Positions 5,279-56,820 of a stretch of DNA of 64,000 nucleotides are shown one piece after another. The number at the start of each line of letters is the position of its first letter. Positions within the stretch are counted from its first letter, which is position 1. This DNA comes from a bacterium. GTDB lineage: Bacteria > UBA8248. Under the pieces are notes generated by a model. The model was not told the origin of the DNA. It saw only the letters and a list, made by a program, of their open reading frames with translations, and made no database searches. The stretch lies in NCBI GenBank assembly GCA_965219955.1, contig OZ244799.1, forward strand, positions 2,016,001-2,080,000, in the 5' to 3' direction. A program made the position numbers and the translations under genes.

Positions 5279-5749
5279 GGAGTTGTTGAACAAGCCCTTC
5301 CCAGGCAGGTTCGACTGCCGGAACAATGGAGCAATGTCTCGTTCCCCGTAGGGGCCGTTCGCGAACGACCCCCTGGAGAAACGGGTGCTTCACGAAGCGC
5401 CCCTACGGGAACGTCCCTTTGAGAGATCACAATGCCCGTCATTCCGGCGAAAGCCGGAATCCATTTTCGCCTTCGTCTTTTCGCCTCCTCGTTCGGACGT
5501 ATTCACTTCAGGGCGGGAAGGATCGGAATCGAACACGAAAAGCGAATTCTCTGGATTCCGCATCCGGACGCCGCGCAACAACGAGGTCGTGGTCACCCTG
5601 CCCGGTGAAAAGTCAAAATGGATTCCGGCTTTCGCCGGAATGACGGCTTCGTGGTGAACCGCATCAGCCGCCTCCGTAACGACGCCCGAATCCAAGCGGA
5701 CGCGAAACGCATCGTCAATTCCGACCGGGGAGGGCTTTTCAACAGCCCC
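5279..5749. mobile_element. Composite MITE-like element: outer GTTGAA-type inverted ends, a GTAG REP pair and an inner 207-bp GTCATT element
   Basis: Ends ggagttgttgaacaagccc / gggcttttcaacagcccc; inner 5438-5644 bounded by inverted GTCATTCCGGCGAAAGCCGGAATCCATTTT. Confidence 0.75.
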
Positions 5750-14475: not shown

Positions 14476-14954
14476 GGGATTGTTGAAAAAGCCCCGCATG
14501 CGTCCCCTGGAAACCGCCAACGCTTCTTTCCTCACCCTGAGTAGCCGCCGAAGGTAAAACGCGACTGAGAAAGGAGCGTTTGTATCGAAGGGCGAGGGGC
14601 TCGCATCGGAACGAGAGCAACCGCTCATTCATCAATCGCGTTTGACCTTCGATACGCGGCTCCGCCGCTACTCAGGATGAGGCGGTGCGGTTTTGTTTCG
14701 TCATTCCGGCGAAAGCCGGAATCCATTTTGACTTTTCACCGGGCGGGGCGGCCACGGCCTTGTTGATACGCGGCGTCCGGATGCGGAATTGAGAAAATAC
14801 GCTTTCTTTTATGTGTTCGATTCCGATCTTCGCCGCCCGGGAGTAAAGACGTCCGAGCGAGTAGGTGAAAAAACGAAGGCGAAAATGGATTCCGGCTTTC
14901 GCCGGAATGACGGCGGTGGCCAATTCTGCACGGGAGAGCTTTTTCAACAGTCCC
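14476..14954. mobile_element. Composite MITE-like element with 5-bp target duplication TGATC
   Basis: Ends gggattgttgaaaaagc / gctttttcaacagtccc; TGATC at 14471-14475 and 14955-14959; contains a CTCACCCTGAGTAG-type element (about 14531-14681) and a GTCATT element (14700-14911). Confidence 0.8.
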
Positions 14955-16154: not shown

Positions 16155-16213
16155 GGGGTTCCGGCACGATAAAAGAACGCGTCAATCGGAGAACAGAAAC
16201 AGGCTCGCCGCAC

Positions 16214-16638
16214 CGTCATTCCGGCGCACGCCGGAATCCAGGGCCGAGCGGAATGGCAATACTCCGGTTTTTCATCATCTCGTCATTGGCGGGAATCAAT
16301 CAGAAAATAAAACAAAGCAAAACAAATGGATTCCGTCGAATCCTCCCGCATTGGTCGGCTCCGACGCCGGAATGACGAACAAAGCCGCACCGCCTCGCAG
16401 TGACACGGTTCCTCCCTCTTCGGTCGGAATCGACCCCTTGGGGCTGCCCCGCAGGTTGCGACTTCTGACAGGCACGGGGCCTGTCTTTACGCAAGGATTG
16501 TGTCTTTGCAGGGGAGAACCTGCGTGTTCTCCCGTTTTTTTGTGCCCGCGTCCGGTTGACCGGGCGGACACACCGGTTCGCCCCTACGGGAAACGAGGTA
16601 TTCACATTCACCCCTTGAGGACTTTTTCAACAGCCCCT
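16214..16638. repeat. Degenerate cluster of GTCATT, GTAG-REP and GTTGAA-end repeats
   Basis: gtcattccggcgcacgccggaatcca near 16215, gccggaatgac near 16366, REP hairpins 16509-16588, gactttttcaacagcccc near 16620. Confidence 0.65.
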
Positions 16639-19749: not shown

Positions 19750-20559
19750 ATGTATCAAGGAAAAGTTCAGATTGTGGGAGCAGGCCCTGGAGATCCGGAC
19801 TTGCTTACACTCAAGGCGGCAAAAGCTCTCTCAAATGCAGACTTGGTGGTTTATGATCGTCTTGTGAACCCCGAAGTTCTTGAACTTTGCCCGGAAAACT
19901 GCCAACTCATCAATGCGGGAAAATCCAGCGGTCGACACACCATGAGCCAAGATGACATCAACGCAGCTCTAATCCATTTCGCTCAGCGCGGTTATCAAGT
20001 GGTGCGTCTAAAAGGCGGGGACCCTTTCGTGTTCGGTCGTGGCGGCGAGGAAGCGCAGGCACTGGCAGATGCCGGTATTGATTTTGAAATCATACCAGGC
20101 ATCAGTTCCGCTTTAGCTGTGCCCGCCTATGCCGGAATACCCGTCACACACCGAAAGCTCGCCTCGTCGTTCACGGTCGTAACTGCACATGAAGACCCCG
20201 GAAAACCAGAAACGCAAGTGGATTACGCGTACTTGGCGAAGAACAGGGGGACGCTTGTTTTCCTCATGGGCGCGCGCTCCATCGGACGCATATCATCCGC
20301 TTTGATGGAAAACGGCATGTCGAAAGACACGCCCGCCGCCATCATTGAAAATGGAACCACAAACAGGCAGTTGGCCTACCGATGTTCTTTGGAAGAAGCA
20401 TCCAGCCTCGCGCAACGCGAAGAAATATCCCCCCCCGCTGTTTTTCTCGTCGGACCCGTCGCCGGTCTTGAAGACCTCGTTTGGTTCGAGGCCGACGAGA
20501 GTCAAGAAATCTCCTGGCGCTGTTCCACGGAAGACCCCCTGAGCAAAGTCATTTCGTAA
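19750..20559 (+). CDS. cobA: Uroporphyrinogen-III C-methyltransferase
   Basis: VGAGPGDPDLLTLKA, RLKGGDPFVFGRGGEE and GIPVTHR motifs. Confidence 0.95.
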   Translation: MYQGKVQIVGAGPGDPDLLTLKAAKALSNADLVVYDRLVNPEVLELCPENCQLINAGKSSGRHTMSQDDINAALIHFAQRGYQVVRLKGGDPFVFGRGGEEAQALADAGIDFEIIPGISSALAVPAYAGIPVTHRKLASSFTVVTAHEDPGKPETQVDYAYLAKNRGTLVFLMGARSIGRISSALMENGMSKDTPAAIIENGTTNRQLAYRCSLEEASSLAQREEISPPAVFLVGPVAGLEDLVWFEADESQEISWRCSTEDPLSKVIS

Positions 20560-20627
20560 ATGCCGGGCTTTAGCCCGGACCATCATTCATTATCCAACAT
20601 GTACGTAGCCGTTCACGTAAGGAGTAA

Positions 20628-22430
20628 GTGATGCACGAAGAATCACGAAAACCATTGTCTCGGGAAACAGGCGTCATTCCGGTGATTCCCGAAGAATTCG
20701 ATGATTTTGAAACACAAGCCACCAGATTCCGAAACGGGGAACTCGATAACAGCGAGTTTCTCCCCTATCGCTTAAGGCGCGGCGTATATGGCCAGCGCCA
20801 GGCGGACGCACAGATGGTGCGCGTGAAAATTCCTTTCGGCGGCCTGAGCGCTTCCCAACTCGAAGCCCTGGGGCGTGTATCGCGTGATTACGTGCCGTTG
20901 GGAAAAGGTCACGTGACGACACGGGAAAACGTGCAGTTTCATTTCGTTCCTCTCGACCAGTCCGCCGATGTCCTGAGGCTTCTGGGCGAAGTAGGACTGA
21001 CCACGCGGGAAGCATGTGGAAATTGCGTGAGAAACGTCACCGGTTGTCCCTATGCGGGCGTTTGCAAGGATCAGGTTTTCGACGCTACTCCCTATGCAGG
21101 CGCATTTGCGCGTTACTTCGTCCGCAGAGATTTCACACAGGACCTGCCGCGCAAATTCAAGGTGGCGTTCTCGAGTTGCGCTTCGGACTGCGTGGTCGGC
21201 GGAATTCATGACATCGGGTTCATCCCGGTTATCAAGGAGATGGAAGGAACTCCCGTGCATGGCTTCAAGATGCTTGTCGGAGGCGGACTCGCTACTTTCG
21301 CGCGTACCGCCGAGGTGCTTTACGAGTTCGTTCCGGTGTCCGATTTCCTGAGGGTGAGTGAAGCCCTCATCCGGGTTTTCGACCAGGCTGCTGAACTTCG
21401 CAAATCCCGCTTCAAGGCGCGCATCAAGTTCCTCGTAAGCTGGATAGGGATAGACGGGCTGCGAGAACGCGTCGAGGAAGAACTCAAAAAGGACTGGGCG
21501 AAAGATCCCGTCAGTCCCGAACCTTATCTTTGGAAAGATGATGAAGAAACCGACGCTCCACCCGTCTTGAATACCCTGAACGGGGCGGGAGCCAGCCCGA
21601 ATGGCGACGCTGCGGATTATCACGCCTGGAGAAAAACGAACGTCACCGCACAGAGGCAAGAAGGCTACTTCGCCGTCGATGTAAAACTCCCGTTGGGGAA
21701 CATCCATACGGATCAGTTCTTCGCCCTGGCCGACCTCACCCGGCGTTTCGCGAGAGGGCGCGCAAGAACGAGTTTCGAGCAAAACCTCGTGCTCAGGTGG
21801 GTGCGCGAAGGCGAACTTTACCCCCTCTGGAAAGAGCTTCAGAGAATCGGGCTCGCCGAAAAAGGGGCCAGAGAGATATCCGACGTGGTTTCCTGCCCGG
21901 GAACGGATTCATGCAAACTCGGCATCACCTCTTCCATGGGCCTGGCAAACGCCATTCGTGAAACACTTCATGAGATTGATCAGGATCCTCTTACGCGGGA
22001 GATGCACATCAAGATGAGCGGTTGCCCGAATTCCTGCGGGCAACACCACATCGCCAACATCGGGTTTCACGGGGGGACGCTCAAGGCGAACGGCGCGATG
22101 CTGCCCGCTTATGAAATTTTCCTCGGCGGTCAATACGATGGCACCGACGGAGAAATCCGCATCGGAAAACGCATCCAGGTTCGGATTCCGGCAAAACGCG
22201 TTCCTGCTGCACTCAAGAAAATGTTGTCCCACTACCAGGAAAACAGAAACGAGAGCGAGCGATTCAGCGAGTTTTTGGATCGTGTGGGGAGTGCGTCCTT
22301 TGAAGACTTGCTGCAGGAGTTTCACCTGGCCGGTCAGTTCAACGACGAGCCCGATTCCGATTTGTTCATCGACTGGAGTCAGGACAGGCAATACGTTCTG
22401 GAAAGAGGAGAAGGCGAATGCCTGGCCTAG
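20628..22430 (+). CDS. Siroheme-dependent sulfite/nitrite reductase (Sir/NirA type)
   Basis: GVYGQRQ, TTRENVQ, LPRKFK, SCPGTDSCKLG and SGCPNSCGQH motifs; C-terminal GEGECLA. Confidence 0.92.
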   Translation: MMHEESRKPLSRETGVIPVIPEEFDDFETQATRFRNGELDNSEFLPYRLRRGVYGQRQADAQMVRVKIPFGGLSASQLEALGRVSRDYVPLGKGHVTTRENVQFHFVPLDQSADVLRLLGEVGLTTREACGNCVRNVTGCPYAGVCKDQVFDATPYAGAFARYFVRRDFTQDLPRKFKVAFSSCASDCVVGGIHDIGFIPVIKEMEGTPVHGFKMLVGGGLATFARTAEVLYEFVPVSDFLRVSEALIRVFDQAAELRKSRFKARIKFLVSWIGIDGLRERVEEELKKDWAKDPVSPEPYLWKDDEETDAPPVLNTLNGAGASPNGDAADYHAWRKTNVTAQRQEGYFAVDVKLPLGNIHTDQFFALADLTRRFARGRARTSFEQNLVLRWVREGELYPLWKELQRIGLAEKGAREISDVVSCPGTDSCKLGITSSMGLANAIRETLHEIDQDPLTREMHIKMSGCPNSCGQHHIANIGFHGGTLKANGAMLPAYEIFLGGQYDGTDGEIRIGKRIQVRIPAKRVPAALKKMLSHYQENRNESERFSEFLDRVGSASFEDLLQEFHLAGQFNDEPDSDLFIDWSQDRQYVLERGEGECLA

Positions 22431-22870
22431 AAAAACAATTGGAATTTCTGGACGATACGCCCGAGGACCAGATAAAAACTGCTGTCTTGCTCATCGGTCA
22501 CGGCAGTCGCGCGCAAAACGCCAACGAAGCGCTGTTCCTCGTCGTGGAGCATTTTCAAAAAGCATGGCCGCATCGCATATTGAAAGCCGCTTTCCTGGAG
22601 ATCAGTTACCCCTCCATTCCAGAGGGAATCGACTTGTGCGTAGCGAAAGGGGCTGAGAGAATCATCGTCATCCCTTACTTTCTTTTCAGGGGCAATCACG
22701 TGAAAGTGGACTTGCCCGTCTTCATCAATGAAGGCCGGAGGAAATATCCGGATATCGACGTCATTTTGGGCCCGCATCTCGGCTTTCATCCCAAGATGAT
22801 CGAGATCGTCGATGAACGAATCCAACAGGTGTTGGACACGCTAAAATTCGAGGAGAATGTGCTCTCATGA
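22418..22870 (+). CDS. Sirohydrochlorin chelatase (CbiX/SirB, short form)
   Basis: LIGHGSR, AFLE...P and PYFLFRGNHVKVDLP motifs. Confidence 0.9.
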   Translation: MPGLEKQLEFLDDTPEDQIKTAVLLIGHGSRAQNANEALFLVVEHFQKAWPHRILKAAFLEISYPSIPEGIDLCVAKGAERIIVIPYFLFRGNHVKVDLPVFINEGRRKYPDIDVILGPHLGFHPKMIEIVDERIQQVLDTLKFEENVLS

Positions 22871-28634: not shown

Positions 28635-29576
28635 TCACGAAAATAAGGATTTCGGCAACATGGCGTGAACCCCTTTTACCCCATTTACGATTTGAGTCAC
28701 TCGCAGATCCACGGCAAGGCTGCAAAGCGTATATGCGTCATCCCTGCTCATGCCGCGCAACTCTCCCAGAAATTTTATCGTCTCACGCAGCGCCATCTTG
28801 GCCGCGTTATCGAGAATGGGATCAAAACCCATCAGGATATAATGCGTGTCGGTTTCCGCCCGGGGATTTTCGAGGCGCATATCCTTTCTGACGATGATTT
28901 CCATCGTCCCCGAGAGACCCGTTTCGATGGCCGTCAAACAGGCCTCCCCGTCGCCCTGGCAACCATGCCCATCGCCTACGGAGAACAACGCGCCCTCGTT
29001 GAAAATCGGGAAGTAGGCGACAGAACCTGATATGAGTTCCTTGTTGTCCAGATTCCCGCCCCAGGCGCTTGGGGGATAGCTCCCCACACGGCCCATGGCA
29101 GGCGGGGGCGCCACGCCGAAGTTTCCGAAATAAGGCCTGAGAGGCACCCTGACGCCCGCGCCCCAGTCCCCCGTTTGCGCTTCCAGGTCGAGGTCCACGA
29201 TGACGGCGCGCGTATACGGGAAATCCTCCGGCAATCCCCCCATCATCGGCCTGATGGCGTTATATCCCCAGTCATAGCGCGTCTTGACCTCGTGGATGCG
29301 GACTTCCAGCACATCTCCGGGTTGTGCGTCTTCTACAGCCACAGGGCCCGTCATGATGTGGGGGCCAAGTTCCTGGGGAACTTGCGCGATGATGTCCCTT
29401 AAATTCCGGGACGCCCGGTCTCCGAGTTCCGCCAGATATTCCTCCCGGCCCGATTCCGTATGAACTTCTAGCGTGTCGCCCGAGCGAATCCTCATTACAG
29501 GCTCCAGGGAGGCGTCATAAAAACCCCAATGGACGGTATCCGGATTCGCAATCAATTCATGAGTCGCCATCAACAC
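28635..29576 (-). CDS. Acetamidase/formamidase family protein (copy 3)
   Basis: HWGFYD, HIMTGPV, GGNLDNKEL and GDGHGCQGDGE motifs. Confidence 0.92.
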   Translation of the reverse strand: MLMATHELIANPDTVHWGFYDASLEPVMRIRSGDTLEVHTESGREEYLAELGDRASRNLRDIIAQVPQELGPHIMTGPVAVEDAQPGDVLEVRIHEVKTRYDWGYNAIRPMMGGLPEDFPYTRAVIVDLDLEAQTGDWGAGVRVPLRPYFGNFGVAPPPAMGRVGSYPPSAWGGNLDNKELISGSVAYFPIFNEGALFSVGDGHGCQGDGEACLTAIETGLSGTMEIIVRKDMRLENPRAETDTHYILMGFDPILDNAAKMALRETIKFLGELRGMSRDDAYTLCSLAVDLRVTQIVNGVKGVHAMLPKSLFS

Positions 29577-30526
29577 TCTCCTCCATCAAAAATTTCTTTT
29601 GGCAGCATCGCATGAACCCCTTTGACCCCGTTCACAATCTGCGTGATGCGCAAATCCACCGCCAGGCTGCACAGCGTATAGGCGTCATCTTTGCTCATGC
29701 CGCGCAATTCCCCCAAAAACCGGATCGTCTCCCTGAGCGCCATTTTGGCCGCATTGTCGAGAATCGGGTCGAACCCCATGAGGATATGATGAGTCGGTGT
29801 CTCGGCGCGGGGCATTTTCAAACCCAAATCCTTTCGGACGATGAGTTCGATTTTCGCGGACATGCCGCATTCCAGGGCCGAGAGACAGCTTTCCCCGTCT
29901 CCCTGACATCCGTGCCCGTCACCTATGGCGAACATAGCCCCATCCTGGAATACGGAAAGGTAGACGCGAGAACCTGCGATAAATTCCTTGTTGTCCATGT
30001 TTCCGCCCCAGATTCCCGGCGGAGTGGATGGAACACGACCAAAATCGCTGGGCGGAGCTACGCCGAAGTTGCCGAAATAAGGCCTGAGCGGCACTTTCAC
30101 GCCCGCGTTCCAATCCCCCGTATTCGCTTCTTTGTCTATTTCCACGATTACCGTTCTCGAATACGGAAAATCCTCGGGCAAGCCACCCGCCAGGGGCCGG
30201 ATGACGTTAAAACCCCAATCGTAGCGCGGCCGGATATCCAGAAATCTCACTTCCAAAACATCTCCCGCCACGGCTCCTTCGACAGCGATGGGTCCGGTGA
30301 GGATATGGCCGCCCAGGTCCCTCTTGCCGCGCTCGGCGATGTCCCGCAGATTGTCAGAAGCTCTTTCCCGTATCGGAGATTCAAGAGTCCGGATCCCCGG
30401 TTCGGTGTGAATTTCGAGCACATCGCCTGAAGCGACGGTGAGAACCGGGGAAAGCCCGGCGTCATAATAGCCCCACTGGATGTTGTCGGGGTTTTGCGCA
30501 ATCACATGTTCGGCCAAGGATGACAC
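29570..30526 (-). CDS. Acetamidase/formamidase family protein (copy 2)
   Basis: HILTGPI, GGNMDNKEF and GDGHGCQGDGE motifs. Confidence 0.92.
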   Translation of the reverse strand: MSSLAEHVIAQNPDNIQWGYYDAGLSPVLTVASGDVLEIHTEPGIRTLESPIRERASDNLRDIAERGKRDLGGHILTGPIAVEGAVAGDVLEVRFLDIRPRYDWGFNVIRPLAGGLPEDFPYSRTVIVEIDKEANTGDWNAGVKVPLRPYFGNFGVAPPSDFGRVPSTPPGIWGGNMDNKEFIAGSRVYLSVFQDGAMFAIGDGHGCQGDGESCLSALECGMSAKIELIVRKDLGLKMPRAETPTHHILMGFDPILDNAAKMALRETIRFLGELRGMSKDDAYTLCSLAVDLRITQIVNGVKGVHAMLPKEIFDGGEC

Positions 30527-30542
30527 CTTATAAATATGAAAC

Positions 30543-31478
30543 TTATTCGAATAAAGATTTGGGCACCATGGCGTGAACGCCCTTGGTGCCGTTCACGATT
30601 TGGGTCACGCGCAGGTCGACCGCCAGGCTGCACAACCTGTACGCGTCATCACGGCTCATGCCCCGAAGCTCACCCAGGAACTGAATCGTCTCCCGCAAAG
30701 CCATCTTCGCCGCATTGTCGAGAATCGGGTCAAAACCCATCAATATATAGTGCGATTCCGTCTCCGCGCGCGGGGTCTTGATATCCATGTCCTTTCGGAC
30801 GGTCATCTCGAAAGTGCCGATGAGGCCCATCTCGATTCCGTTGATGTTCGCCTCCCCATCCCCCTGGCAACCGTGCCCGTCACCCACGGAGAACAAGGCG
30901 CCTTCGCTGAAAACAGGCAGATAAATCGTCGAGCCGGCCGTGAATTCCTTACAATCCGTATTGCCGCCCCACTCTCCCGGAGGAGACGACGGCACGCGCC
31001 CAAGCGCCGGAGCGGGCGCTACCCCGAAATTTCCGAAAAAAGGCCCGAGCGGCACCTTGACTCCCGCGCCCCAGTCGCCCGTTCCACTCTCCTCGTCCAC
31101 CTCGACAATCACAACCCTCGTATAAGGGAAATCCTCCGGCAGCCCACCCATCAGGGGTCTGAAGCCGTTGTAGCCCCAATCATACCGGGGTCTGATATCA
31201 CGAATCTTGATCTCCAGAACATCGCCGGGTTCGGCGCCTTCGACCGCCACCGGACCCGTCATGATGTGCGCACCGGGCCCCTGTTCCATCGTCTCCAGGA
31301 TTCGCCTCAGATTATCCGAGACTCTCTCGGGATGTTTTTGCAGAAAATCCTTGCGCCCAGACTCGGTTTTCACGACAAGCGTATCGCCGGAAGCGATCGT
31401 CATAACGGGAGCAAGAGCTGAGTCATAAAAGCCCCAATGGCTGGTATCGACGGTGGTATCCAGTTCATGCGTGGCCAA
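30543..31478 (-). CDS. Acetamidase/formamidase family protein (copy 1)
   Basis: HIMTGPV, GGNTDCKEF and GDGHGCQGDGE motifs. Confidence 0.92.
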   Translation of the reverse strand: MATHELDTTVDTSHWGFYDSALAPVMTIASGDTLVVKTESGRKDFLQKHPERVSDNLRRILETMEQGPGAHIMTGPVAVEGAEPGDVLEIKIRDIRPRYDWGYNGFRPLMGGLPEDFPYTRVVIVEVDEESGTGDWGAGVKVPLGPFFGNFGVAPAPALGRVPSSPPGEWGGNTDCKEFTAGSTIYLPVFSEGALFSVGDGHGCQGDGEANINGIEMGLIGTFEMTVRKDMDIKTPRAETESHYILMGFDPILDNAAKMALRETIQFLGELRGMSRDDAYRLCSLAVDLRVTQIVNGTKGVHAMVPKSLFE

Positions 31479-33961: not shown

Positions 33962-35653
33962 ATGATAGAGCAGAAAACAGCCCTGAACCGATTTAGCCGG
34001 CGCATCACCCAACCGCCCTCACAGGCCGCCTCACAGGCCATGCTCTACGGCGCGGGGCTGGATGAAATCGACATGAAAAACCCCCAGGTCGGCATCGCCA
34101 GCATGTGGTGGGAGGGAAATTCCTGCAATTTTCACCTCAACCGGCTGGCCGAATACATCAAACAAAGCGTGAACGCCGAAAAGAAAATGGTCGGCCTCAT
34201 TTTCAACACCATCGGCGTGAGCGACGGCATCTCCATGGGAACGGAGGGCATGAAATACTCCTTACAATCCCGGGACCTCATCGCCGATTCGATCGAGACC
34301 GTCGTCGGCGCGCAATGGTATGACGCCCTGGTCACGCTCCCCGGATGCGACAAGAACATGCCCGGCTCCATCATGGCTATGGCACGGCTCAACCGGCCCA
34401 GCCTGATGGTTTACGGCGGCACCATAAGCCCGGGATTCCTCAATGGAGACAAGCTGGACGTGGTTTCCGCCTTCCAGGCCTACGGCGAATATTTCTCGGA
34501 TAAAATTGACGAAGAGCGCTTTCAGTCGGTCATCCGGCATGCCTGCCCGAGCGGCGGCGCCTGCGGGGGGATGTATACGGCGAACACGATGTCCTCATCC
34601 ATCGAAACGCTGGGCATGAGCCTGCCTTACAGTTCATCGAATCCCGCCATGAGCGAGGATAAGAAAAACGAGTGTCTCGATGTGGGAAAAGCCATTTATC
34701 ATCTTCTCGAAAACGACATCAAACCCAGCGACATCATGACGAGAGAAGCATTCGAGAACGCGATCACCATCATCATGGCACTCGGCGGCTCGACAAACGC
34801 CGTCCTCCACTACATCGCCATCGCCAAGGCTGTCGGGATTGAATTCACAATCGACGATTTTCAGGAAATCAGCGACAATACGCCTTACATCGCGGATCTG
34901 AAGCCCAGCGGCAAATTCGTCATGGAAGACCTCCACGACGTGGGCGGCGTGCCAGCCGTTCAAAAACTTCTCTTGAAAGAAGGTCTGCTCCATGGCGATT
35001 GCCTCACCGTCACGGGCAAGACGCTCGGAGAGAACATCGAGGCCTTGCCTGACCTCCATGCCAGCCAGAAAGTTATCGTACCGCTCTCGTCTCCCATCAA
35101 GAAAACGGGACACCTCCAGATCCTCTACGGAAACCTCGCGAGCGAGGGTGCCGTCGCCAAGATCACGGGAAAAGAAGGAGAACGTTTCGAAGGCCCTGCG
35201 CGATGCTTCGATTCCGAGGAAGACGCCCTAAAAGGACTGGAAGAAAACAGGGTTCAAAAGGGAGACGTCGTCATCATCCGCTATGAAGGCCCCAAAGGAG
35301 GCCCCGGGATGCGGGAGATGCTGACGGTTACTTCCGCAATCATGGGGGCCGGCCTCGGGAATGACCTGGCCCTCATCACGGACGGCAGATTCTCGGGTGG
35401 CACGCATGGGTTCGTCGTCGGACACGTTACGCCTGAAGCCCAAAGCGGCGGCCTCCTCGCGCTCATCGAAGACGATGACACCGTTTTGATCGATGCCCAA
35501 AAACGCGTCATGGAACTCAAAGTACCCGAGGAAGAGATAGAGCGGCGGCGGCAAAACTGGAGCGCACCACCGCTTAAGTTCACCAAGGGCACGCTCTACA
35601 AGTACGCCAAGTGCGTATCTTCGGCATCGGAGGGCTGCGTGACGGACGAATAG
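33962..35653 (+). CDS. ilvD: Dihydroxy-acid dehydratase
   Basis: [50 protein letters not shown] and TDGRFSGG motifs. Confidence 0.97.
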
Positions 35654-35665
35654 AGGTTGACCACG

Positions 35666-35701
35666 AAAAAAAGAGGGGAGTCGTTTGCTCCCCTCTTTTT
35701 T
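35666..35701. terminator. Bidirectional rho-independent terminator
   Basis: aaaaaaagaggggag-tcgtttg-ctcccctctttttt between convergent genes. Confidence 0.85.
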
Positions 35702-35718
35702 GTGGCTGCGGCGCCAGT

Positions 35719-36183
35719 CTACGATGCGCCGGTTTTCTTTTTACGGTCGGTGTATTCCTTGAAATATCCCGCGATAGAGGAAGCCTCCCAGTCAAAATCA
35801 ATGTCGCGCGCTTTTTGAAGCACTTCGTCTCCGCTCAGGCCTTCTTCTTCGGCCAGATGAACAAGCGAGCAAATCCCGGCTCGCCTCACGCCTTTTCAGT
35901 GAACGTAAACCAGTCCGTCTTTCCTGGCTTCACTGAGTTTTTGGTGGATTTCCGCCGATAACTCATCGCTTATGTTGTCGGCAGTCGCAGGTACATGCAA
36001 GAAGTTCATACCCAGTTCATGCGCCGCCTCTCTCTCCGCATCGGGCGGAAGTTCCGGTTCTTCCTCATCTGCGGAACGAACATTCACCAGGGTTTTTATC
36101 CCTTTATTCGCCAGACTCTCCATATCCTTCCGCCCCGGCTGGCTACCGAACACGAGATTATCCGCCAATTCGATGTAGTCCAT
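35719..36183 (-). CDS. DUF442/Blh-type (PTP-like) sulfurtransferase/phosphatase selenoprotein, Sec at codon 96
   Basis: Track ORF stops at VYVH-TGA, but the frame continues UKGVRRAGICSLVHLAEEEGLSGDEVLQKARDIDFDW...KKKTGAS-TAG (154 aa) and ends at the terminator; hairpin follows the TGA. Confidence 0.85.
35863..35886 (-). promoter_or_regulatory. Putative bacterial SECIS hairpin
   Basis: AGGCGAGC-CGGGAUUU-GCUCGCUU starting 9 nt after the UGA (35896-35898). Confidence 0.65.
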
Positions 36184-36206
36184 ACCCTTTTTCCTCGACG
36201 ATAGTT

Positions 36207-37049
36207 TCAGACTCGTTGCACCAGCTCCCGACAGCGAAGCAGGCAGGTTACTTTTTCATCTTCTCCATCACGCTTATAAATTCCAAGCAAATTGTTGAGC
36301 ATTCTCTCCAAGATACGGCGAGGAGGGGTTTCCTGTAAGAACCGCATATCGAAATGATACCCGAGTCCACGCAGAATCGCCGCGCAATCCCCCACGCTCA
36401 GGCGTTTCCCCCTATCGAAGGGGTCCAGAAAAATGGGCTCCTCATCACCTTGGTACTTCACGATAAAATGTCCCGGCATTCCGACTCCGTGAAACGGAAG
36501 TCCCAACCGTGCGCCAAGAATCAAATACAAAGCGGAAAGTGATATTGGAATGCCCCGTCTGCGCTCCAGCACACGATCCATAAAGCTGTTCTGCGCATCA
36601 TAGTAATTGTCCCGTTCGCCATCGAAGCGAAGCTCCCCGTGTAGATATTCGACGACTTCGGTGACAATGGCGTCGGCTTTATTTATACCCACCAAACGTC
36701 CACGCAAATGATTCTCCATCTTCAGCAAATCGTCTTTTTTCGTCTCCATGTTTTCGAGAGGATGGCCGAAAGACGCCAGCAAGAAGCAAGCATCCTCCAG
36801 ATCCACATCTTCAACCGAGGAAAGAGACCAGTCCGAAAAAGCGATTTCGATCTGTCTGTAATGGAACTCCATAAGCGATGACGGCAGCATGACATCGCTT
36901 ACCTCACGATTTTTCAGCATGTGCAGGAGTCTTTTCTGCTCTTTGGTCGAGAATTCCGAAACCTGTCGGTCCAAGGCCGACACCACCCGCGGTGAACCAT
37001 CATCCAACAAGCGGCAAACGGCCTCTAATTGCGAGTCACTCAACGACAA
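36207..37049 (-). CDS. SirB1 / transglutaminase-like family protein
   Basis: F.G...NYYDAQNSF...VLERRRGIPISLS, GMPGHF, FLDPF and RMLNNL motifs. Confidence 0.9.
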   Translation of the reverse strand: MSLSDSQLEAVCRLLDDGSPRVVSALDRQVSEFSTKEQKRLLHMLKNREVSDVMLPSSLMEFHYRQIEIAFSDWSLSSVEDVDLEDACFLLASFGHPLENMETKKDDLLKMENHLRGRLVGINKADAIVTEVVEYLHGELRFDGERDNYYDAQNSFMDRVLERRRGIPISLSALYLILGARLGLPFHGVGMPGHFIVKYQGDEEPIFLDPFDRGKRLSVGDCAAILRGLGYHFDMRFLQETPPRRILERMLNNLLGIYKRDGEDEKVTCLLRCRELVQRV

Positions 37050-39189: not shown

Positions 39190-40545
39190 CTACGCGCTTT
39201 CTCGAACATACTCTAAAACCGTCTCTGCGGCTTTATCCCCGCTTCGCACCGCTCCTTCTACGGTGGCCGGCAAACCTGTGCGAGTCCAATCTCCAGCAAG
39301 AAAAAAACCCTCAATCGGTGTTCTGGTATCTAACCGGTAATTTTGCTCCGCCACCCCGTTCGCCCAGGTAGCGGCGCGCTCCCGCACCACCAAAATATCT
39401 CGAATACGGTTACGGGGAATCATGCGATTCAAGCAATCCCTCGCAGACGACTCGATGATCGACCGCTTCTCAGATGCGATGGAATCCTCCGCCCCGGCCA
39501 ATAGACATACCAGGTTTTCCGCACATTTCCCGCCAGTTTCAAGTCGAAACAACCAGTCCCACTCCTCACCCACTATTGCCTCAAAAGGAGGCCCCTCATC
39601 CGGTTCTTCAAGCCAGAAATATGCGCTGGCGATAGGCCCGGGGCGTAGTTTTCCCAGATTCGAAAAAAGTGATTGCTGACCGAGTTCGCTGCCTAGCAAT
39701 CTGCCCAAAACGTCGGGTGGCACGGCGGAAATGACTGCGGCTGCGGGTAAAGTCTCTCGCTCCCTTACCATCACACCGTTCATTTTTGAATCATTGACCT
39801 CAAAACCGACTGCGGGTTGCTGAAGCCTCACCTCTCCACCAAGGTGCCGGATGCGTTGGGCCGCTCTGTTCGCCCACAGCGTACCCAATGCCTTCATCGG
39901 CACCCCCAAGGCGGCTCCCTTCGGCCCATCGGCAAAGGCTTCCCGAATCACCGCCTTGAACAATTCCGCACTCCCCAGTTCCAAAGGCAAGTTCAACACC
40001 GCGCGTGCAAACGGCTCCCAAAACCAGCGCACCGCCTCATTCTTCTGGCCAAGGTCCTCCAGCATGTCACTCATGGATTCATCCGGGTTCTCATCGCCCG
40101 ATTTGGAAACAATCTTCGAAAGACCTCTCAAAAGATTTATTTTTTCCAAAAAGCGGGGTCCACGCCATTTGAGCAAGCCTTGAAGTTGCGCAAAAACCCC
40201 TCCTCCCTCTGGAAATGACAACTGCGTCCGTCGGGTCGACCCCGCTTTCCGAATACGGTAGCCCACTTCCAGGGAAGGGGAGAAAAAAATATCATCGGCG
40301 GCGCCCACTCTTTCCAACAATGAGCGCAATGCCGGATTGGCCGCCATGAACAAATGCGGGCCCCAGTCCAACTCCATGTCCGTGGATGAATGCTTGAAAC
40401 TGCGCGCCCGGCCACCGAGAAACTTCCCGGCCTCGAGCACCACAACCTTGACGCCAGATTCGGCGAGGCGCAAAGCGGCGGACAGGCCCGCTGCGCCGGC
40501 TCCGATAATGATGACCGGCCTCTCGGATCCGCCCAGCTCAGACAT
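39190..40545 (-). CDS. hpnE: Hydroxysqualene dehydroxylase (FAD-dependent)
   Basis: IIGAGAAGLSAA, LGGRARSF, ERAAT and LAGDWT.TGLPATVEGAVRSG; directly after hpnCD. Confidence 0.85.
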   Translation of the reverse strand: MSELGGSERPVIIIGAGAAGLSAALRLAESGVKVVVLEAGKFLGGRARSFKHSSTDMELDWGPHLFMAANPALRSLLERVGAADDIFFSPSLEVGYRIRKAGSTRRTQLSFPEGGGVFAQLQGLLKWRGPRFLEKINLLRGLSKIVSKSGDENPDESMSDMLEDLGQKNEAVRWFWEPFARAVLNLPLELGSAELFKAVIREAFADGPKGAALGVPMKALGTLWANRAAQRIRHLGGEVRLQQPAVGFEVNDSKMNGVMVRERETLPAAAVISAVPPDVLGRLLGSELGQQSLFSNLGKLRPGPIASAYFWLEEPDEGPPFEAIVGEEWDWLFRLETGGKCAENLVCLLAGAEDSIASEKRSIIESSARDCLNRMIPRNRIRDILVVRERAATWANGVAEQNYRLDTRTPIEGFFLAGDWTRTGLPATVEGAVRSGDKAAETVLEYVRESA

Positions 40546-42705
40546 CTACGCTTCCAGAAAACAGCGAAGCGCTTCTAGTAGTTTTTCCCTGGACTTCAAA
40601 GAGGGGCGATAATCCATGTGCCGAAAATCATTCTTCTCCATCTCACTCAGAAGTCTCCGATAAATTCGGCCCATGATTCTCGCGGGAAGAAGGTTCCCTG
40701 TCTTCTCGTGACTCAAGGCTTCGTTCGCTCCCTCGTAGTATTCACGCGCTCGATGCGCCAAGGACCGAAGAAGGCTTAAAACCTCGGAAGTATCGTTTTT
40801 ATATCTCAAATCGGAGACCGTTACGCCATATTTCTCCATTTCGCTTCCGGGAATATAAATGCGCCCTTCCTCGGCATCTTCCCAAACGTCTCTCAAAATG
40901 TTCGTCATCTGCAGCGCCCTGCCCAAACAAACGGCGTAGTCGTTGGCGAATTCCGATTTCGCCTCGAAGATGCCCAGGCACGCCAGCCCTACTGCGGAAG
41001 CCACCTTGTCACAATAATTTTCAAGGTCTGACAAATTTTCAAATCGACTATCCTCCAGATCCATCGCCACCCCGTCACAAATCGCCCGGAAATGTTCCGG
41101 CGGCAAGTCGTATTTTCTCGACGCCCATGCGAGTTCCCCGATTATCGGGTGGGATGGACTCTCCTCGCCCAACTGATCCAGCGCCTCTTTCCATTCGCGC
41201 AACGTGGTTTTCTTGCCGGATATCTCACCCGGCTCATCGGCGATGTCGTCGGCCATGCGGCAATACGCGTAAACCGCCGTGATGGCGCGCCTTTTCTCCG
41301 CCGGCAGGCTGAAAAAAGACAGATAAAAATTCGACCGGCTCGCGCGAATGAACCAGCGGCAGTATGCGCGGTTCAACCCTTCTTCGGCATGCCGATCCAC
41401 ATTGGATTCGAGTCGATAGACCGGGCGAAACACCGCGAGCAACGATTTGGCCTTATCCCGGCCATTCAAAAGCGGAGATCCCGCGCAGACGTTCCATTCC
41501 GCACGGGAAATGGCGTCAAGCGCCGCAATGCCGCCGCGCCAAATCGCGCGAAGCTCACGGCCCAATGCGCCGCGGGTGCGGTACAAAAGAGGCAGGCCCT
41601 GCCTGAAGAGGCGCTTCGTCCTTTTTATCTGAAAAACCAGGAACGCTCGAAGCTGAGGCGTCGCCGCGTCGGCAAGCAAATCATCCTCGGAGACGGAGAA
41701 TCTTTTCATCTCATCCTGAGGCATATAGATAATGCCTCGCTCGGCGTCTTCTTTCACATCTTGCAAGTGATTCGCAATCTGCAAGGCCGTGCAGATGGCA
41801 TCTGACGCGCGAAGGGCCTCTTCATCACGTATCCCGTGCAGCATGAGAACGATTCGCCCGACGGGATCCGCCGATCGGCGACAATAATCGAGCAAGGCTT
41901 CATAGTTCGGATACCGGAGGACTGTGACGTCCTGTTTGAATGCCGACAGCAAATCCCGAAAAGGCTGCAAGGGCAAATCGAATTGCTGAATCGTGTCGGA
42001 GAGCGCAATGAAAACGGCTGTTTCCGCAACTCCTTGCTGGGCCAATACGAGTTTTTCTTCCCACTCATCAAGGCGCGCAAGTCGCTCCCGGGCGGGCTCT
42101 GTCGAATCCGCGATATCATCCGCACCCCTGGCGAACGCATATACCGCGGCAACGTGCGGTCTTATCTTCGCCGGAAGCAACTTCGAGGCGACGGGAAAAT
42201 TCTCGTAGTGGCCGACTACGATTTTCATGCACTCATCATAAGCGGCGCTTAAATCAGCCTCTGAAACATTTTTTGCCTCTTTGTCTGAATCCCGTGTCTC
42301 CTCGCCATTCATGAGAGATTCTATCAACTGCGCATCCGCGGGCAGGAAATCAAACTCCCCCAATGAGGCAGGATGCACCCACTCGTGTTCCGCTACCCCC
42401 AAATTCTCCGCCACTCCGCTTTCCCACTCACAATCATAAAAGCGAAGGTGGACGTCCCTGTCTGGATAACGGTGTCGTGTCTCCCAATGAAGACGGCCAA
42501 CGCGCACATCGATCCCTAATTCTTCGCAAATTTCCCTTTGCAATGCTTCCCGGGGATTCTCGCCGTACTCAATTTTGCCGCCGGGAAACTCCCAGAAGCC
42601 CGGCATATGTCCGCCCTCCGGGCGCTGGCAGATGAGAATGCGTCCCTCGCTCCGGACAATCCCGGCAACGACGCTTAGCTCTAAAACGGCAACTTCGTCC
42701 TTCAT
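40546..42705 (-). CDS. Triple fusion: NUDIX hydrolase (MutT/NudG-like) + HpnC + HpnD squalene synthesis domains
   Basis: Nudix box GGKIEYGENPREALQREICEELG; HYENFPVAS..ADDIAD..ANHLQD (HpnC); SNFYLSF..ADDIAD..TNILRDV.ED..GRIYIP (HpnD). Confidence 0.85.
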   Translation of the reverse strand: MKDEVAVLELSVVAGIVRSEGRILICQRPEGGHMPGFWEFPGGKIEYGENPREALQREICEELGIDVRVGRLHWETRHRYPDRDVHLRFYDCEWESGVAENLGVAEHEWVHPASLGEFDFLPADAQLIESLMNGEETRDSDKEAKNVSEADLSAAYDECMKIVVGHYENFPVASKLLPAKIRPHVAAVYAFARGADDIADSTEPARERLARLDEWEEKLVLAQQGVAETAVFIALSDTIQQFDLPLQPFRDLLSAFKQDVTVLRYPNYEALLDYCRRSADPVGRIVLMLHGIRDEEALRASDAICTALQIANHLQDVKEDAERGIIYMPQDEMKRFSVSEDDLLADAATPQLRAFLVFQIKRTKRLFRQGLPLLYRTRGALGRELRAIWRGGIAALDAISRAEWNVCAGSPLLNGRDKAKSLLAVFRPVYRLESNVDRHAEEGLNRAYCRWFIRASRSNFYLSFFSLPAEKRRAITAVYAYCRMADDIADEPGEISGKKTTLREWKEALDQLGEESPSHPIIGELAWASRKYDLPPEHFRAICDGVAMDLEDSRFENLSDLENYCDKVASAVGLACLGIFEAKSEFANDYAVCLGRALQMTNILRDVWEDAEEGRIYIPGSEMEKYGVTVSDLRYKNDTSEVLSLLRSLAHRAREYYEGANEALSHEKTGNLLPARIMGRIYRRLLSEMEKNDFRHMDYRPSLKSREKLLEALRCFLEA

Positions 42706-45881: not shown

Positions 45882-46497
45882 CCTTCGCCTCATCCGCATG
45901 AACCGGGCGTCCGCTCCCGCGGGGTCGCCGGACCACCCCGTTCCGGGGCCGGGCGGCCCGGGCGGATGGGTTCGCCTCGCGGGGAAACGCGGGCAATTGC
46001 GCGCAAATGCGGGGCTGCGAAAAAACTTTTTCATTCGATGAATTTCGATAAATCATTCACTACCTGCTTTATGTTATCCCGGTAACTGTTTGAATAAATA
46101 TAAAATATCATTTTTCGTCCTGTTCGATAAATTTGCAGGAATTTATCGAAAAATACCTTGAATTTATCCAATTTTACGGGAAATATCATTATTTCCATTT
46201 CCCCGCCCGCCCCGGCGTCCATGAGCGCCGTGGCCCGGGCCGGGTGAAGAACGCGGACAGACGCCCCTATCCTCTCTCGAATGCCCGGTGCCATGAGAAA
46301 ACCTCCTCTCGCCTCCGCGTCGGCCCGCAAGCGGGAGAGCTTTCCCCCGCGCGGCGCGCACGATACACCGCTTCGGGGTCCGGGGGAGAACGGCAAATGC
46401 GCGCAAATGCGCAGACGCCCGGCCCCCTCGCCGAACCTCCCTTGTCAGAAGGGCTTTTTTGTCCCCCGTCGGGAGTGTCGCCTTTTCCCCCTGACAA

Positions 46498-47165
46498 GGA
46501 GTTGTTGAAAAATTCCTAATTTCGTGATTCCACATATAGAGCCGACCATGGAGGGATGAAACTTTACTCCTCCCTTGTGGAGCGCCAATCAATCACTCCC
46601 CCCTTGAGGGGGCTGTTGAAAAACCCCGATGAGGGAGGGTTTGTTGTAGGGGCCGCATACATGCGGCCCATTGTTGGAACGGGAAAAACCAGGGTCGCAT
46701 ATATGCGACCCCTACAATCTCCGCACAAGGTGTTGGTGCAGGGGTACCATACACGCGGCCCTACGGGTTCATCTTGCGTCGGGTGAAGGGCATCCTTCGA
46801 TACGCGGTTTCACCGCTACTCAGGATGAAGGAGATGTGAGGACTTTTTCAACAGCCCCTTGAGGGGGGGGAGTCGAAGAGGTCGAGCCTTGGCGAAGGCC
46901 GATTCGGTGGGGGGTGAATCGCGTTTTACCCGCTCCGAATTATACCCCCCACCAGTTCGCTTTCGGGCTTACGCCCTCAGCTCACTGACTCCCCCTCAAG
47001 GGGGGAGTGGTTCCTTTCTTCTCGGTTGCCGATGACACTCAAGGGGGGAGGGAATCCCGATCATCGAATTGTTCGCCGTAGGGACAACCCTCCGTGGTTG
47101 TCCTTCGTCGGGGCGTCAGGACGACAGGCGCGGAGGCCTGCCCCTGCAAAACCAACCCCCTACAA
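46498..47165. mobile_element. Nested MITE/REP cluster
   Basis: CACTCCCCCTTGAGGGGG-type element 46594-47009 interrupted by a GGGGCTGTTGAAAAA-ended element 46609-46858 with TTGAG duplication; GTAG REPs inside and at 47077-47163. Confidence 0.8.
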
Positions 47166-49695: not shown

Positions 49696-50226
49696 GGGGT
49701 TGTTGGAAAAGCCTGGATAAACGAGGGTTTGACTCGTCCGATAAATGAGCAAGATTCACTCCCCCTTGAGGGTCTGGCTTCCCGAGGGGAAAGCCAGACG
49801 GTGAGGTAAGGGCGCAAGCCCGCAAGCGAACCGGTGGGGGGTATAATTCGGAATGGCGATAAAACGCATTTTACCCCCCACCGCATCAGCCTTCGCAAAA
49901 AACGCTCGGCTTCTTCGTCTGGCTTTCCCCTCGGGAAGCCAGACCCTCAAGGGGGGAGTGATTCTTCTCTCTCGTTGGTTGGCAATGTTGTTCAAGGGCA
50001 ATGTCCGCAGCCGCGCAGATGAGCTGAATTCCGAGCGAGAAGCCTTTTTCAACAGCCCCGACAAGGGGGGTAGGGGAGTTGGTTTTCGGGGTGAGCGGGC
50101 GGGAGACGCAAAAGAACCTCATCCCGAGTAGGCCCGAAGGGCCGTATCGAGGGAGCGCCCCTTCGACAGGCTCAGGACAGGCCCTTCGATACGCCCTTCG
50201 ACAAGCTCAGGACTACTCAGGGTGAG
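49696..50226. mobile_element. Composite MITE/REP cluster
   Basis: Ends ggggttgttggaaaagcc / gcctttttcaacagcccc (49696-50059) enclose a CACTCCCCC element (49757-49960); followed by CTCATCCCGAGTAG...CTACTCAGGGTGAG with CCCTTCGACA(G/A)GCTCAGG repeats. Confidence 0.75.
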
Positions 50227-50842
50227 GGGTATCGGGCGGCGCGGCGGTGCGGCGGATGAGTTCCTTGAGCGCCTCCATGTTCTCGCGGTGCTGATCTTTG
50301 TGCTCCTCGCGCTGGGTGGCGAGCGCGTTCATGGTCGCGACGTGCTGAGCTTTTTGATCCTCGCGTTGCGCGGCGAGCGCGTTCATGGTCGCGATGTGCT
50401 GATCTTTTTGGTCCTCGCGCTGGGCGGCGAGCGAACTCATAGTGGCGCGGTGTTGATCTTTGTGCTCCTCGCGCTGTGTGGCGAGCGCGTTCATGTTCTC
50501 GCGGTGCGCGCGTTCCATCGCTTCCATGGTTGCGCGGTGCTGGTCTTTTTGCGCCTCGCGCTCGGCGGCGAGTGCCTCCATGTTCTCACGGTGCGTGCGC
50601 TCCATCGCCTCCATGGTTTCGCGGTGGCGGCTGTCGAGCGCCTTCATGGTTTCGCGGTGCTGGGCGTCGCGGTGGCGCGCGGCCTGGCGCATGAAGTAGA
50701 GGCCGTAGGCGATCAGGGAGCACTGCGCGGCCCCCACGAGCGCGGCGACCCACACCGAGGCCTGCTGCGCTACGAGGGAGGCTTTCTGGATGGCCAGGGA
50801 TGATTCCTGGATGGCGAGACTTGCGGCTTCGTATTCCGTCAT
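50213..50842 (-). CDS. Hypothetical membrane-anchored coiled-coil protein with expanded HxxxM repeats
   Basis: MTEYEAASLA...SVWVAALVGAAQCSLI...nine H-x3-M units...ELIRRT; paralog of 1093-1542. Confidence 0.82.
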   Translation of the reverse strand: MTEYEAASLAIQESSLAIQKASLVAQQASVWVAALVGAAQCSLIAYGLYFMRQAARHRDAQHRETMKALDSRHRETMEAMERTHRENMEALAAEREAQKDQHRATMEAMERAHRENMNALATQREEHKDQHRATMSSLAAQREDQKDQHIATMNALAAQREDQKAQHVATMNALATQREEHKDQHRENMEALKELIRRTAAPPDTPHPE

Positions 50843-51048
50843 TTGGTTTTCCCCCACGTTAGTGGGTCCTCATACGCGTAACTCTAATGCGCCGCCGCGC
50901 GCTTCGTCAAGGCGGATTCCGGGTGGCGGGGGAGGGTATTTGATCATCATTCCGGCAATCAATGCCGACCGGGGAGGGAGGGATTGCCGGAATGACGGCG
51001 GGCGGTTTGCGGTTTTCGAGGCGAGCGGGGAGAAGGGCGTTTCACTCG

Positions 51049-51480
51049 GGGGTTGTTGAAAAAAGCTCCGATAAAGGAGAGGTTTGTTCCGTAGGGGCCG
51101 TTCTCGTGAACGGCCCACGTTCGTGAACGGCCCTTGCCGGAGAAACGGGCGCTTCACGAAGCGCCCCTACGACACTCTTCCGGAGAGATCACAACACCCG
51201 TCATTCCGGCGAAAGCCGGAATCCATTTTGACTTTTCACCAGGCGGGGTGGCCACGACCTTGTTCTTACGCGGCGTCCGGATGCGGAATCCAAAGAATTC
51301 GCCTTTCGTTTTTGTATTCGATTCCGCTCCTCCCCGCTCGGGAGCAAAGACGTCCGAGCGAGGGGGCGAAAAGGCAAAGGCGAAAATGGATTCCGGCTTT
51401 CGCCGGAATGACGGCCAAAACCAAAAACCGGGCGGAGGCGCAGGCATCACTTTCTCCTCCAGGACTTTTTCAACAACCCC
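51049..51480. mobile_element. Composite MITE-like element related to 5279-5749
   Basis: Ends ggggttgttgaaaaagc / gactttttcaacaacccc; GTAG REP 51089-51170; GTCATT element 51200-51412. Confidence 0.78.
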
Positions 51481-56409: not shown

Positions 56410-56820
56410 GGGGCTGTTGGAAAAGCCCCCGGGAAGCGATTTCGGGAATTGAGGCAACCGACGAGAGAGGAAAATCACTCCCCCTTGAGGGTCATCGCTA
56501 GGGAAGCAGGAAGTGGATTCACTCCCCCCTTGAGGGGGAGTCGAAGAGGCCGAGCGTTTTTTGCGAAGGCCGATTCGGTGGGGGGGAATGCGTTTTATCG
56601 CCACCCGAATTATCCCCCCACCGATTCGCTTGCGGGCTTACGCCCTTAGCTCATCGACTCCCCCTCAAGGGGGGAGTGGTTGATTAGCACTCTGCAAGGG
56701 AGGAGTAAAGTTTCATCCCTTCATGGTCGGCTACATACGCCGAATCACGGAATCAGGGCTTTTTCAACAATCCCCTCAAGGGGGGAGTGATTCCTCTCTC
56801 CTCGGGCTTTTTCAGCAGGC
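56410..56820. mobile_element. Composite MITE cluster
   Basis: ggggctgttggaaaagcccc ... gggctttttcaacaatccc; intact 159-bp CACTCCCCC element 56520-56678; arm 56679-56774 is an inverted homolog of 46498-46593. Confidence 0.75.

Follow-up and report, generated by a model that had tools for sequence, protein, structure and literature searches.

A gene of a Nitrospinota-like bacterium, on the minus strand of contig OZ244799.1 (GenBank assembly GCA_965219955.1), at positions 36183..35719 of the window analysed here (the whole stretch of 64,000 nucleotides from contig position 2,016,001 to 2,080,000), is likely to encode a 154-residue selenoprotein with a probable rhodanese-like transferase function, in which an in-frame TGA at codon 96 would specify selenocysteine (Sec, U) at the catalytic position. 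The product is a stand-alone domain with the fold of the protein tyrosine phosphatases (PTP), of the DUF442 or BLH_phosphatase type. A 58-codon open frame past a stop is unremarkable when taken alone, and the observation rises above chance because of comparative evidence, not because of the open frame or the hairpin behind the TGA by themselves.

Reading frame and conservation of the in-frame TGA

An ATG at 36183 on the minus strand starts a 95-codon open reading frame (ORF; 35896..36183) that ends in ...KDGLVYVH-TGA and carries the GSQP, GIKTLVNVR and FLHVP motifs, all as described in an earlier sequence-only reading of this DNA. When the TGA is taken as U, the computed translation continues for 58 codons to a TAG, passing through the H-U-K-G-V-R-R-A loop proposed in that reading and giving a product of 154 residues. 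The stop that closes the read-through frame in 17 related loci is TAG in 13 and TAA in 4. The elements of the gene are the following:

35719..36183, minus strand: predicted selenoprotein coding sequence, 154 codons plus TAG, encoding one DUF442-type domain with the PTP fold (U at codon 96)
35896..35898, minus strand: proposed Sec codon, the in-frame TGA at codon 96, aligned with the catalytic Cys of homologs
35875..35901, minus strand: P-loop H95-U96-K-G-V-R-R-A-G103, of the H-C-x4-R-A-G type
35869..35871, minus strand: codon of Cys105, the sole Cys of the protein and a possible resolving Cys
35863..35886, minus strand: candidate bacterial selenocysteine insertion sequence (SECIS) hairpin, with a conserved 7-bp core at 35864..35885 and the loop CGGGAUUU at 35871..35878
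35719..35721, minus strand: stop codon TAG, the proposed true stop according to the read-through translation
36185..36196, minus strand: Shine-Dalgarno-like purine-rich stretch GAGGAAAAAGGG immediately 5' of the ATG, read from the sequence

The close relatives of the protein were retrieved by a word-indexed search of 5.8 billion proteins, which returned 25 proteins with 58-98% identity. None of them is full-length, 21 have exactly 95 amino acids and 23 end at ...V[YF]VH, the residue preceding the TGA. Every database copy found is a 95-residue stump in its annotation, one of them being named 'sulfur transferase domain-containing protein'. Besides, when one genome of each GTDB species was scanned, 17 related loci were found, which together with the window make up 18 sequences. 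Codon 96 is TGA in all 17 loci, so that a Cys codon misread as TGA is excluded, and the frame stays open to 150-154 residues in every case, with U-K-G-[VL]-[GR]-R-A-G-I-C-S-L conserved across them. Six of these loci are labelled Nitrospinota or Nitrospinaceae. The gene order of the window, including an upstream transglutaminase-like gene, is common to all 17, and the neighbouring ilvD is 94-99% identical among the loci; the 18 sequences are thus syntenic close relatives, and for this reason their value as independent observations is limited.

The pattern of substitutions on the two sides of the TGA is that of a coding sequence. Variable sites at the first, second and third codon positions number 40, 32 and 80 in codons 1-95 and 20, 18 and 44 in the 54 codons from 97 to 150, and the median Nei-Gojobori ratio of nonsynonymous to synonymous rates (dN/dS) is 0.11 in codons 1-95; after the TGA it is 0.21 over codons 97-150 and 0.17 when only codons 109-150 are counted. 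From these ratios and the third-position bias we infer that the post-TGA frame is under purifying selection at the protein level. An alternative genetic code was considered and ruled out: TGA is the ordinary stop for 11 of the 28 family-supported genes of the window, and therefore it is not a general sense codon here. One close relative departs from the common architecture, since P0026 (94 amino acids, encoded on a 229-kb contig) carries an in-frame deletion that joins residues ~1-55 to the post-TGA C-terminus and has lost the entire active site, and in its genome ordinary gene calling reads the C-terminal frame. Judged from its sequence, P0026 is a degenerate copy in one genome.

More distant homologs place the TGA on a catalytic residue. 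When 1.84 billion representatives were searched exhaustively with HMMER, 960 hits were obtained at E<=1e-3, and the best 150 were aligned; most of these have about 150 amino acids and align over residues 1-150 of the read-through product, with 25-44% identity. In this set of 150, the position aligned with U96 is Cys in 131 proteins and Ser in 7; nine have another residue or a gap there, and the remaining three end just before it (P0020, which represents the clade of the window itself, P0055 and P0146). Of the 131 Cys forms, 130 retain H95 and 127 retain R101, and the loop reads H-C-x4-R-[AS]-G, or H-C-x-x-G-x-R-[AS]-G, which bears out the earlier assignment of a C-x4-R loop. The closest Cys form among the best 150 is P0027, a protein of 162 amino acids with 44% identity, aligned over residues 1-153. 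Given these comparisons, it is very probable that the UGA is decoded, giving a functional full-length protein of the DUF442 type.

P0055 shares 38% identity with the window protein, and P0055 and its six closest relatives (69-85% identical to it) all have exactly 95 amino acids (7/7); one member of this group is a hypothetical protein of 'Nitrospinae bacterium'. By its protein lengths, the group has the look of another Sec clade, further removed from the window protein. In an alignment of 34 sequences, a two-residue insert before the strand leading to the P-loop occurs in the window clade, P0027, P0055 and P0146 only, and the other full-length forms are devoid of it. Moreover, Cys105 is invariant in the 18 Sec forms and is found in just 2 of the 131 Cys-form representatives, one of them P0027; the Cys forms mostly have F, L or M at this position. 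A selenenylsulfide between U96 and Cys105 is possible.

Fold, P-loop and probable chemistry

The read-through protein matches Pfam PF04273 (BLH_phosphatase, formerly DUF442) with 32.5 bits against a gathering cut-off of 26.1, and this is the sole Pfam family above its cut-off. Alignment of the post-TGA segment to homologs had been set beforehand as a test of the Sec proposal, and it was obtained not only with HMMER but also with this profile, whose match lengthens from residues 6-86 to residues 6-101 once the TGA is read through. For the dual-specificity phosphatase (DSP) family DSPc the score was 24.2 bits where the cut-off is 33.5, and the scores for PTP-NADK, PTP-SAK and Tc-R-P did not reach 27, so that four DSP-type families lie under their cut-offs. 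NCBIfam release 20 holds no selenoprotein-specific or dedicated model for the family.

The AlphaFold2 model, built on a 76-sequence alignment, is one compact domain predicted with a local confidence (pLDDT) of 93 and a template modelling score (pTM) of 0.89, and in it the post-TGA residues form the helices 100-114, 118-127 and 138-152, which are integral to the domain. When the model was compared with the PDB by Foldseek, the DUF442 structures 2f46 (TM 0.75/0.80) and 3gxh ranked first, with TM values of 0.72-0.80, followed by Tk-PTP and the dual-specificity phosphatases, the neighbours including TpbA and VHR. A sequence-profile search of the PDB likewise recovered 2f46 at 3.4e-19 and 3gxg at 6.5e-15.

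Compared with the known DUF442/PF04273 domains (Blh of Xylella and Agrobacterium, the SQR-fused domain of Cupriavidus pinatubonensis, 2f46 from NMA1982, and 3gxh), the window protein has the same PTP-like fold and the same H-C-x4-R-[AS] loop, and its nucleophile stands at a near-identical residue number (Cys94 in the Cupriavidus protein, SQRCp, and U96 here). It differs from them in that the nucleophile is encoded by UGA, and is proposed to be Sec, whereas theirs is Cys; in that it stands alone, without fusion to ETHE1 or SQR and outside any sqr-pdo operon; in the two-residue insert before the P-loop strand and the additional, invariant Cys105; and in scoring under the NCBIfam cut-offs for TIGR01244 and Blh. 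The likeness to the Cys-based PTP and DSP phosphatases (Tk-PTP 5z5a, VHR/DUSP3, TpbA and PTPMT1) is also clear, since the overall fold is shared (TM 0.6-0.78) along with the His before the nucleophile, the Arg that closes the P-loop and the helix after it. However, the P-loop of the window protein is one residue shorter (U-KGVR-R, that is C-x4-R rather than the C-x5-R of these enzymes), so the classical H-C-x5-R phosphatase signature is absent, and a conserved general-acid Asp is not apparent. D69 differs among members of the clade; D73 is kept in at least 90% of the sequences but stands where a helix begins.

It has been reported that the DUF442 domain of Xylella Blh moves sulfane sulfur from thiosulfate to cyanide or glutathione (PMC5823870) and that the SQR-fused domain of Cupriavidus is a rhodanese working via Cys94 (PMC9163753). 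According to these accounts, the two DUF442 domains with described biochemistry are rhodanese-like sulfurtransferases and not phosphatases (PMC5823870; PMC9163753). Because the C-x4-R loop length matches that of the sulfurtransferase DUF442 domains and not that of the C-x5-R phosphatases, sulfane-sulfur or selenium transfer is the most likely activity, and by analogy we slightly favour such a transferase over a phosphatase. The nucleophile of the H-U-K-G-V-R-R-A-G loop would be a selenolate in place of a thiolate, sulfane sulfur or selenium might be passed on by way of a Se-S or Se-Se intermediate bound covalently at U96, and the clade-invariant Cys105 could act as a resolving or protecting partner of U96.

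The same protein could be a real selenoprotein with a different chemistry, namely a phosphatase or an arsenate-reductase-like P-loop enzyme that forms a phospho- or arseno-enzyme intermediate on Sec, and we regard this as unlikely while giving it more credence than any other alternative. The PTP/DSP fold itself speaks for such an enzyme, as do the active phosphatases among the structural neighbours (Tk-PTP, TpbA and VHR), the weak Pfam matches to DSPc, PTP-NADK and PTP-SAK, the label 'putative phosphatase' that PDB depositors gave to DUF442 structures, and the lack of adjacent sulfur-metabolism genes. Nevertheless, the loop is one residue short for a phosphatase, PF04273 passes its cut-off where every DSP-type score fails, the loop Asp, residue 69, varies across the clade, and the two biochemically described relatives transfer sulfur (PMC5823870; PMC9163753). 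The transferase assignment in turn has to accommodate three findings that count against it: the NCBIfam sulfur transferase model TIGR01244 was missed (49.1 against a cut-off of 85.85 bits), as was the Blh model NF040641 (62.9 against 625 bits, with only profile positions 2-131 of 423 covered), and the NCBIfam scan of the window revealed no sulfur-oxidation genes sqr or pdo beside the gene. From the earlier proposal of a Sec-dependent sulfur/selenium transferase or phosphatase, the Sec reading is supported and the function is inferred only.

Candidate SECIS hairpin and identity of the inserted residue

The 8-bp hairpin with one G-U pair that had been noticed 9 nt past the TGA is present, with the arms AGGCGAGC (35886..35879) and GCUCGCUU (35870..35863) enclosing the loop CGGGAUUU. 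Consensus folding of the 18 sequences with RNAalifold gave a 7-bp stem, GGCGAGC / GCUCGCU, which begins 10 nt past the UGA and closes an 8-nt loop. In this stem 126 of 126 cells are paired; five pairs are invariant and two vary on one side each with pairing kept (A-U to G-U in four sequences and G-C to G-U in one). In the published description of the bacterial SECIS, a stem-loop directly follows the UGA on its 3' side (PMC9312934), and the position of the hairpin fits this. The UGA would be read as Sec in translation, as its conservation suggests, with the GC-rich stem-loop serving as a putative SECIS that recruits SelB with Sec-tRNA(Sec).

Further evidence comes from synonymous sites. Across the sequences, 26 of 145 degenerate columns use a single codon, and codons 102-106, which correspond to the loop and the 3' arm, each have one codon in 18/18 sequences (permutation P 0.016 for such a run). 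Single-codon columns account for 8 of 12 in codons 97-108 and for 18 of 133 elsewhere (Fisher P 1.2e-4). Additionally, the median synonymous rate (dS) is 0.99 upstream and 0.51 downstream of the TGA. These frozen synonymous sites are sequence evidence for a constraint at the RNA level over the hairpin.

Several observations weigh against the selenoprotein interpretation. The hairpin of the window is no more stable than shuffled sequence (-12.4 kcal/mol, z -0.6, 48 of 200 shuffles equal), in agreement with a second folding test (z -0.2, 80 of 200 shuffles as stable), none of the seven stem pairs shows a compensatory change among the 18 sequences, and a column-shuffle control for covariation was uninformative (500/500). 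The conservation of the hairpin is also in part shared ancestry, given the limited independence of the 18 sequences. No SECIS family of Rfam matches; a scan of the whole window at the gathering thresholds yielded only tRNA-Val, and an E-value scan of 35700-36000 returned two weak, irrelevant matches. No selA, selB, selD or tRNA-Sec was found in the 64-kb window among the 59 ORFs scanned or by the tRNA scan, the sole tRNA being tRNA-Val, and a look for further selenoprotein genes, covering 35 of the 155 listed TGA read-through candidates of the window, gave no Pfam domain that spans a TGA. In addition, the related locus L010 contains a second in-frame TGA at codon 132 (L010:6391-6399), a position that codes for Trp (TGG) in the window and in the other 16 loci; an error of sequencing, the beginning of decay and a further site of recoding are all conceivable. 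Indirect support for Sec machinery would come from a selenoprotein-rich lineage, if the window organism belongs to it: Table 2 of BSepDB credits three metagenome-assembled genomes of GTDB UBA8248, under the labels Nitrospinota, Nitrospinaceae or Nitrospinae, with 54, 50 and 48 selenoprotein genes (PMC13326102), and Slaby et al. described SelA and SelB in most of their symbiont bins (PMC5649159).

Read-through of the UGA without selenium, by near-cognate insertion of Trp or Cys or by a suppressor tRNA, with the hairpin stimulating read-through instead of binding SelB, would be compatible with part of these results, because the comparative data prove that translation goes on beyond the UGA but say nothing on which amino acid is put in, the Sec machinery of the genome is unverified, and the hairpin lacks both covariation and a match to known SECIS models. 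We nonetheless consider it highly improbable. The catalytic Cys that occupies the position in most of the best 150 homologs is the classical Sec/Cys pattern by which selenoprotein genes are defined in published method descriptions (PMC13326102; PMC12013277), Trp at position 96 would kill the enzyme, the retention of UGA in 18/18 genomes is hard to explain without Sec since TGC or TGT would suffice, and the hairpin lies where a bacterial SECIS is described (PMC9312934). The residue inserted at the UGA is, on this sequence evidence, probably Sec.

The least likely explanation is that the TGA is a real stop, either in a decaying or split gene or behind a 95-residue fragment whose C-terminal part is untranslated or is started from an internal GTG/TTG at codon 99. 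This view can draw on all gene callers stopping there (as in 23 of the 25 database entries), on the 53-aa C-terminal piece P0113 that was called as a separate protein, on GTG or TTG at codon 99 in 16 of the 18 sequences and on the fact that no Sec machinery is demonstrated for the genome. Against it, the break would coincide exactly with the catalytic nucleophile in a P-loop that is conserved and otherwise intact, all 18 genomes retain both the TGA and the 58-codon frame, with a dN/dS of 0.17-0.21, codon 99 is GTA or GTT in the other 2 sequences, the complete domain of the AlphaFold2 model needs the post-TGA helices, and a conserved hairpin with frozen synonymous sites occupies the SECIS position.

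Possible novelty of the family and genomic surroundings

The sequence-only reading did not count the family among the commonly listed selenoproteins, and the published lists that were compared (87 + 9 families) agree with that. Neither PF04273, COG3453, DUF442 nor the PTP fold appears in Table 1 of a 2022 review, given there as a 'complete list' of 87 families or subfamilies (PMC9312934), and the family is not among the nine added by deep-Sep (PMC12013277). Full-text searches found no literature linking DUF442, TIGR01244, COG3453 or PF04273 to selenoprotein or selenocysteine, and a search for a Sec-containing tyrosine phosphatase in the bacterial selenoproteome literature returned, in its listing, only reviews treating PTPs as redox targets. 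Likewise, no natural Sec-containing PTP/DSP member is included in the published lists compared. The gene may therefore represent a new bacterial selenoprotein family, absent from these lists, which did not cover the 111-family table of BSepDB and two Haft papers, where it may be listed.

Close counterparts among the published selenoproteins are the rhodanese-type ones, which contribute four entries to Table 1 of the review (pfam00581, COG0607 forms 1 and 2, and COG2897; PMC9312934). There they are predicted Sec sulfurtransferases with Sec in place of the persulfide-carrying loop Cys, and the window protein resembles them in its proposed combination of a Sec/Cys pair with a SECIS. However, the folds are unrelated (rhodanese as opposed to PTP/DSP), no sequence relationship was detected, and those families are in the list of that review whereas the window family is not (PMC9312934). 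Both the way of recoding and the replacement of Cys by Sec are conventional, and no new mechanism is involved.

If the interpretation as a selenoprotein is true, a PTP-type P-loop domain with a Sec nucleophile would add a fold class to the bacterial selenoproteome, and a systematic mis-annotation as a 95-residue stump would be corrected. The window protein and the 44%-identical P0027 would form a natural Sec/Cys pair for asking what advantage selenium brings to persulfide or P-loop chemistry. Besides, the lineage would be marked as a Sec user, and sulfur/selenium trafficking would be indicated in relatives of marine nitrite oxidisers. A more far-reaching proposal can also be formulated, in which no earlier natural example of a PTP-fold enzyme with a Sec P-loop nucleophile would exist, the protein belonging to an unlisted family in at least two clades labelled Nitrospinota or Nitrospinae, with a selenenyl-sulfide or perselenide on U96 resolved by Cys105 and with a role as a dedicated sulfane-sulfur/selenium relay that possibly supplies selenium to the unusually large selenoproteomes of the lineage; taken as a whole, this proposal is doubtful.

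The surroundings of the gene in this organism, whose GC content is 58.3%, comprise the following:

36207..37049, minus strand: transglutaminase-like gene (Transglut_core2, SirB1-like), upstream and co-oriented, with its stop 23 nt before the ATG of the selenoprotein gene
35661..35705, no strand assigned: hairpin between A and T runs, located between the selenoprotein gene and the convergent ilvD
33962..35653: ilvD, convergent with the selenoprotein gene

The selenoprotein gene is probably co-transcribed with the transglutaminase-like gene as its operon partner. The terminator that had been noted next to the TAG corresponds to the hairpin at 35661..35705, which has a folding energy of -28.5 kcal/mol (z -4.5) with 0 of 200 shuffles as stable; it was absent from the output of a simple terminator pattern scanner, and from its sequence it looks like a bidirectional intrinsic terminator. 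On the opposite strand, a 116-aa unsupported ORF at 35611-35961 (+) overlaps the 3' half of the selenoprotein gene and is able to mask it in overlap-based ORF filters.

Other features of the window were noted as well. A siroheme-related row lies at 19750-22870 (+), 13 kb from the selenoprotein gene, and consists of a cobA/cysG-type methyltransferase, a NirA/sulfite-reductase-like hemoprotein and a CbiX-type chelatase. Two families of intergenic repeats were also observed. The first is an element of ~220 nt with copies at 5421-5647, 14683-14914 and 51183-51417 (86-96% identity) and a partial copy at 16198-16244; it has inverted termini (CGTCATTCCGGCGAAAGCCGGAATCC...), with the look of a miniature inverted-repeat transposable element or a repetitive extragenic palindromic sequence, and yields spurious ORFs with 'IPAKAGIHF' and 'WIPAFAGMT' peptides. 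The second occurs at 46486-47012, 49761-49998 and 56482-56786, with perfect 40-nt inverted arms at 49761-49800 / 49916-49955. The ORF at 50213-50857 (-) contains a 54-nt (18-aa) tandem repeat in five overlapping register copies at 50267-50623, and its product is a repetitive 'HRENMEAL...QREEHKDQHRATM' protein without a family match. Three tandem paralogs of 313, 318 and 311 aa, with 70-75% DNA identity and weak formamidase/acetamidase-like matches, occupy 28635-31478 (-). Finally, a hopanoid/squalene cluster is found at 39190-42705 (-), in which hpnE is followed by a single ORF of 719 aa where a Nudix (MutT-like) domain is joined to HpnC and HpnD.

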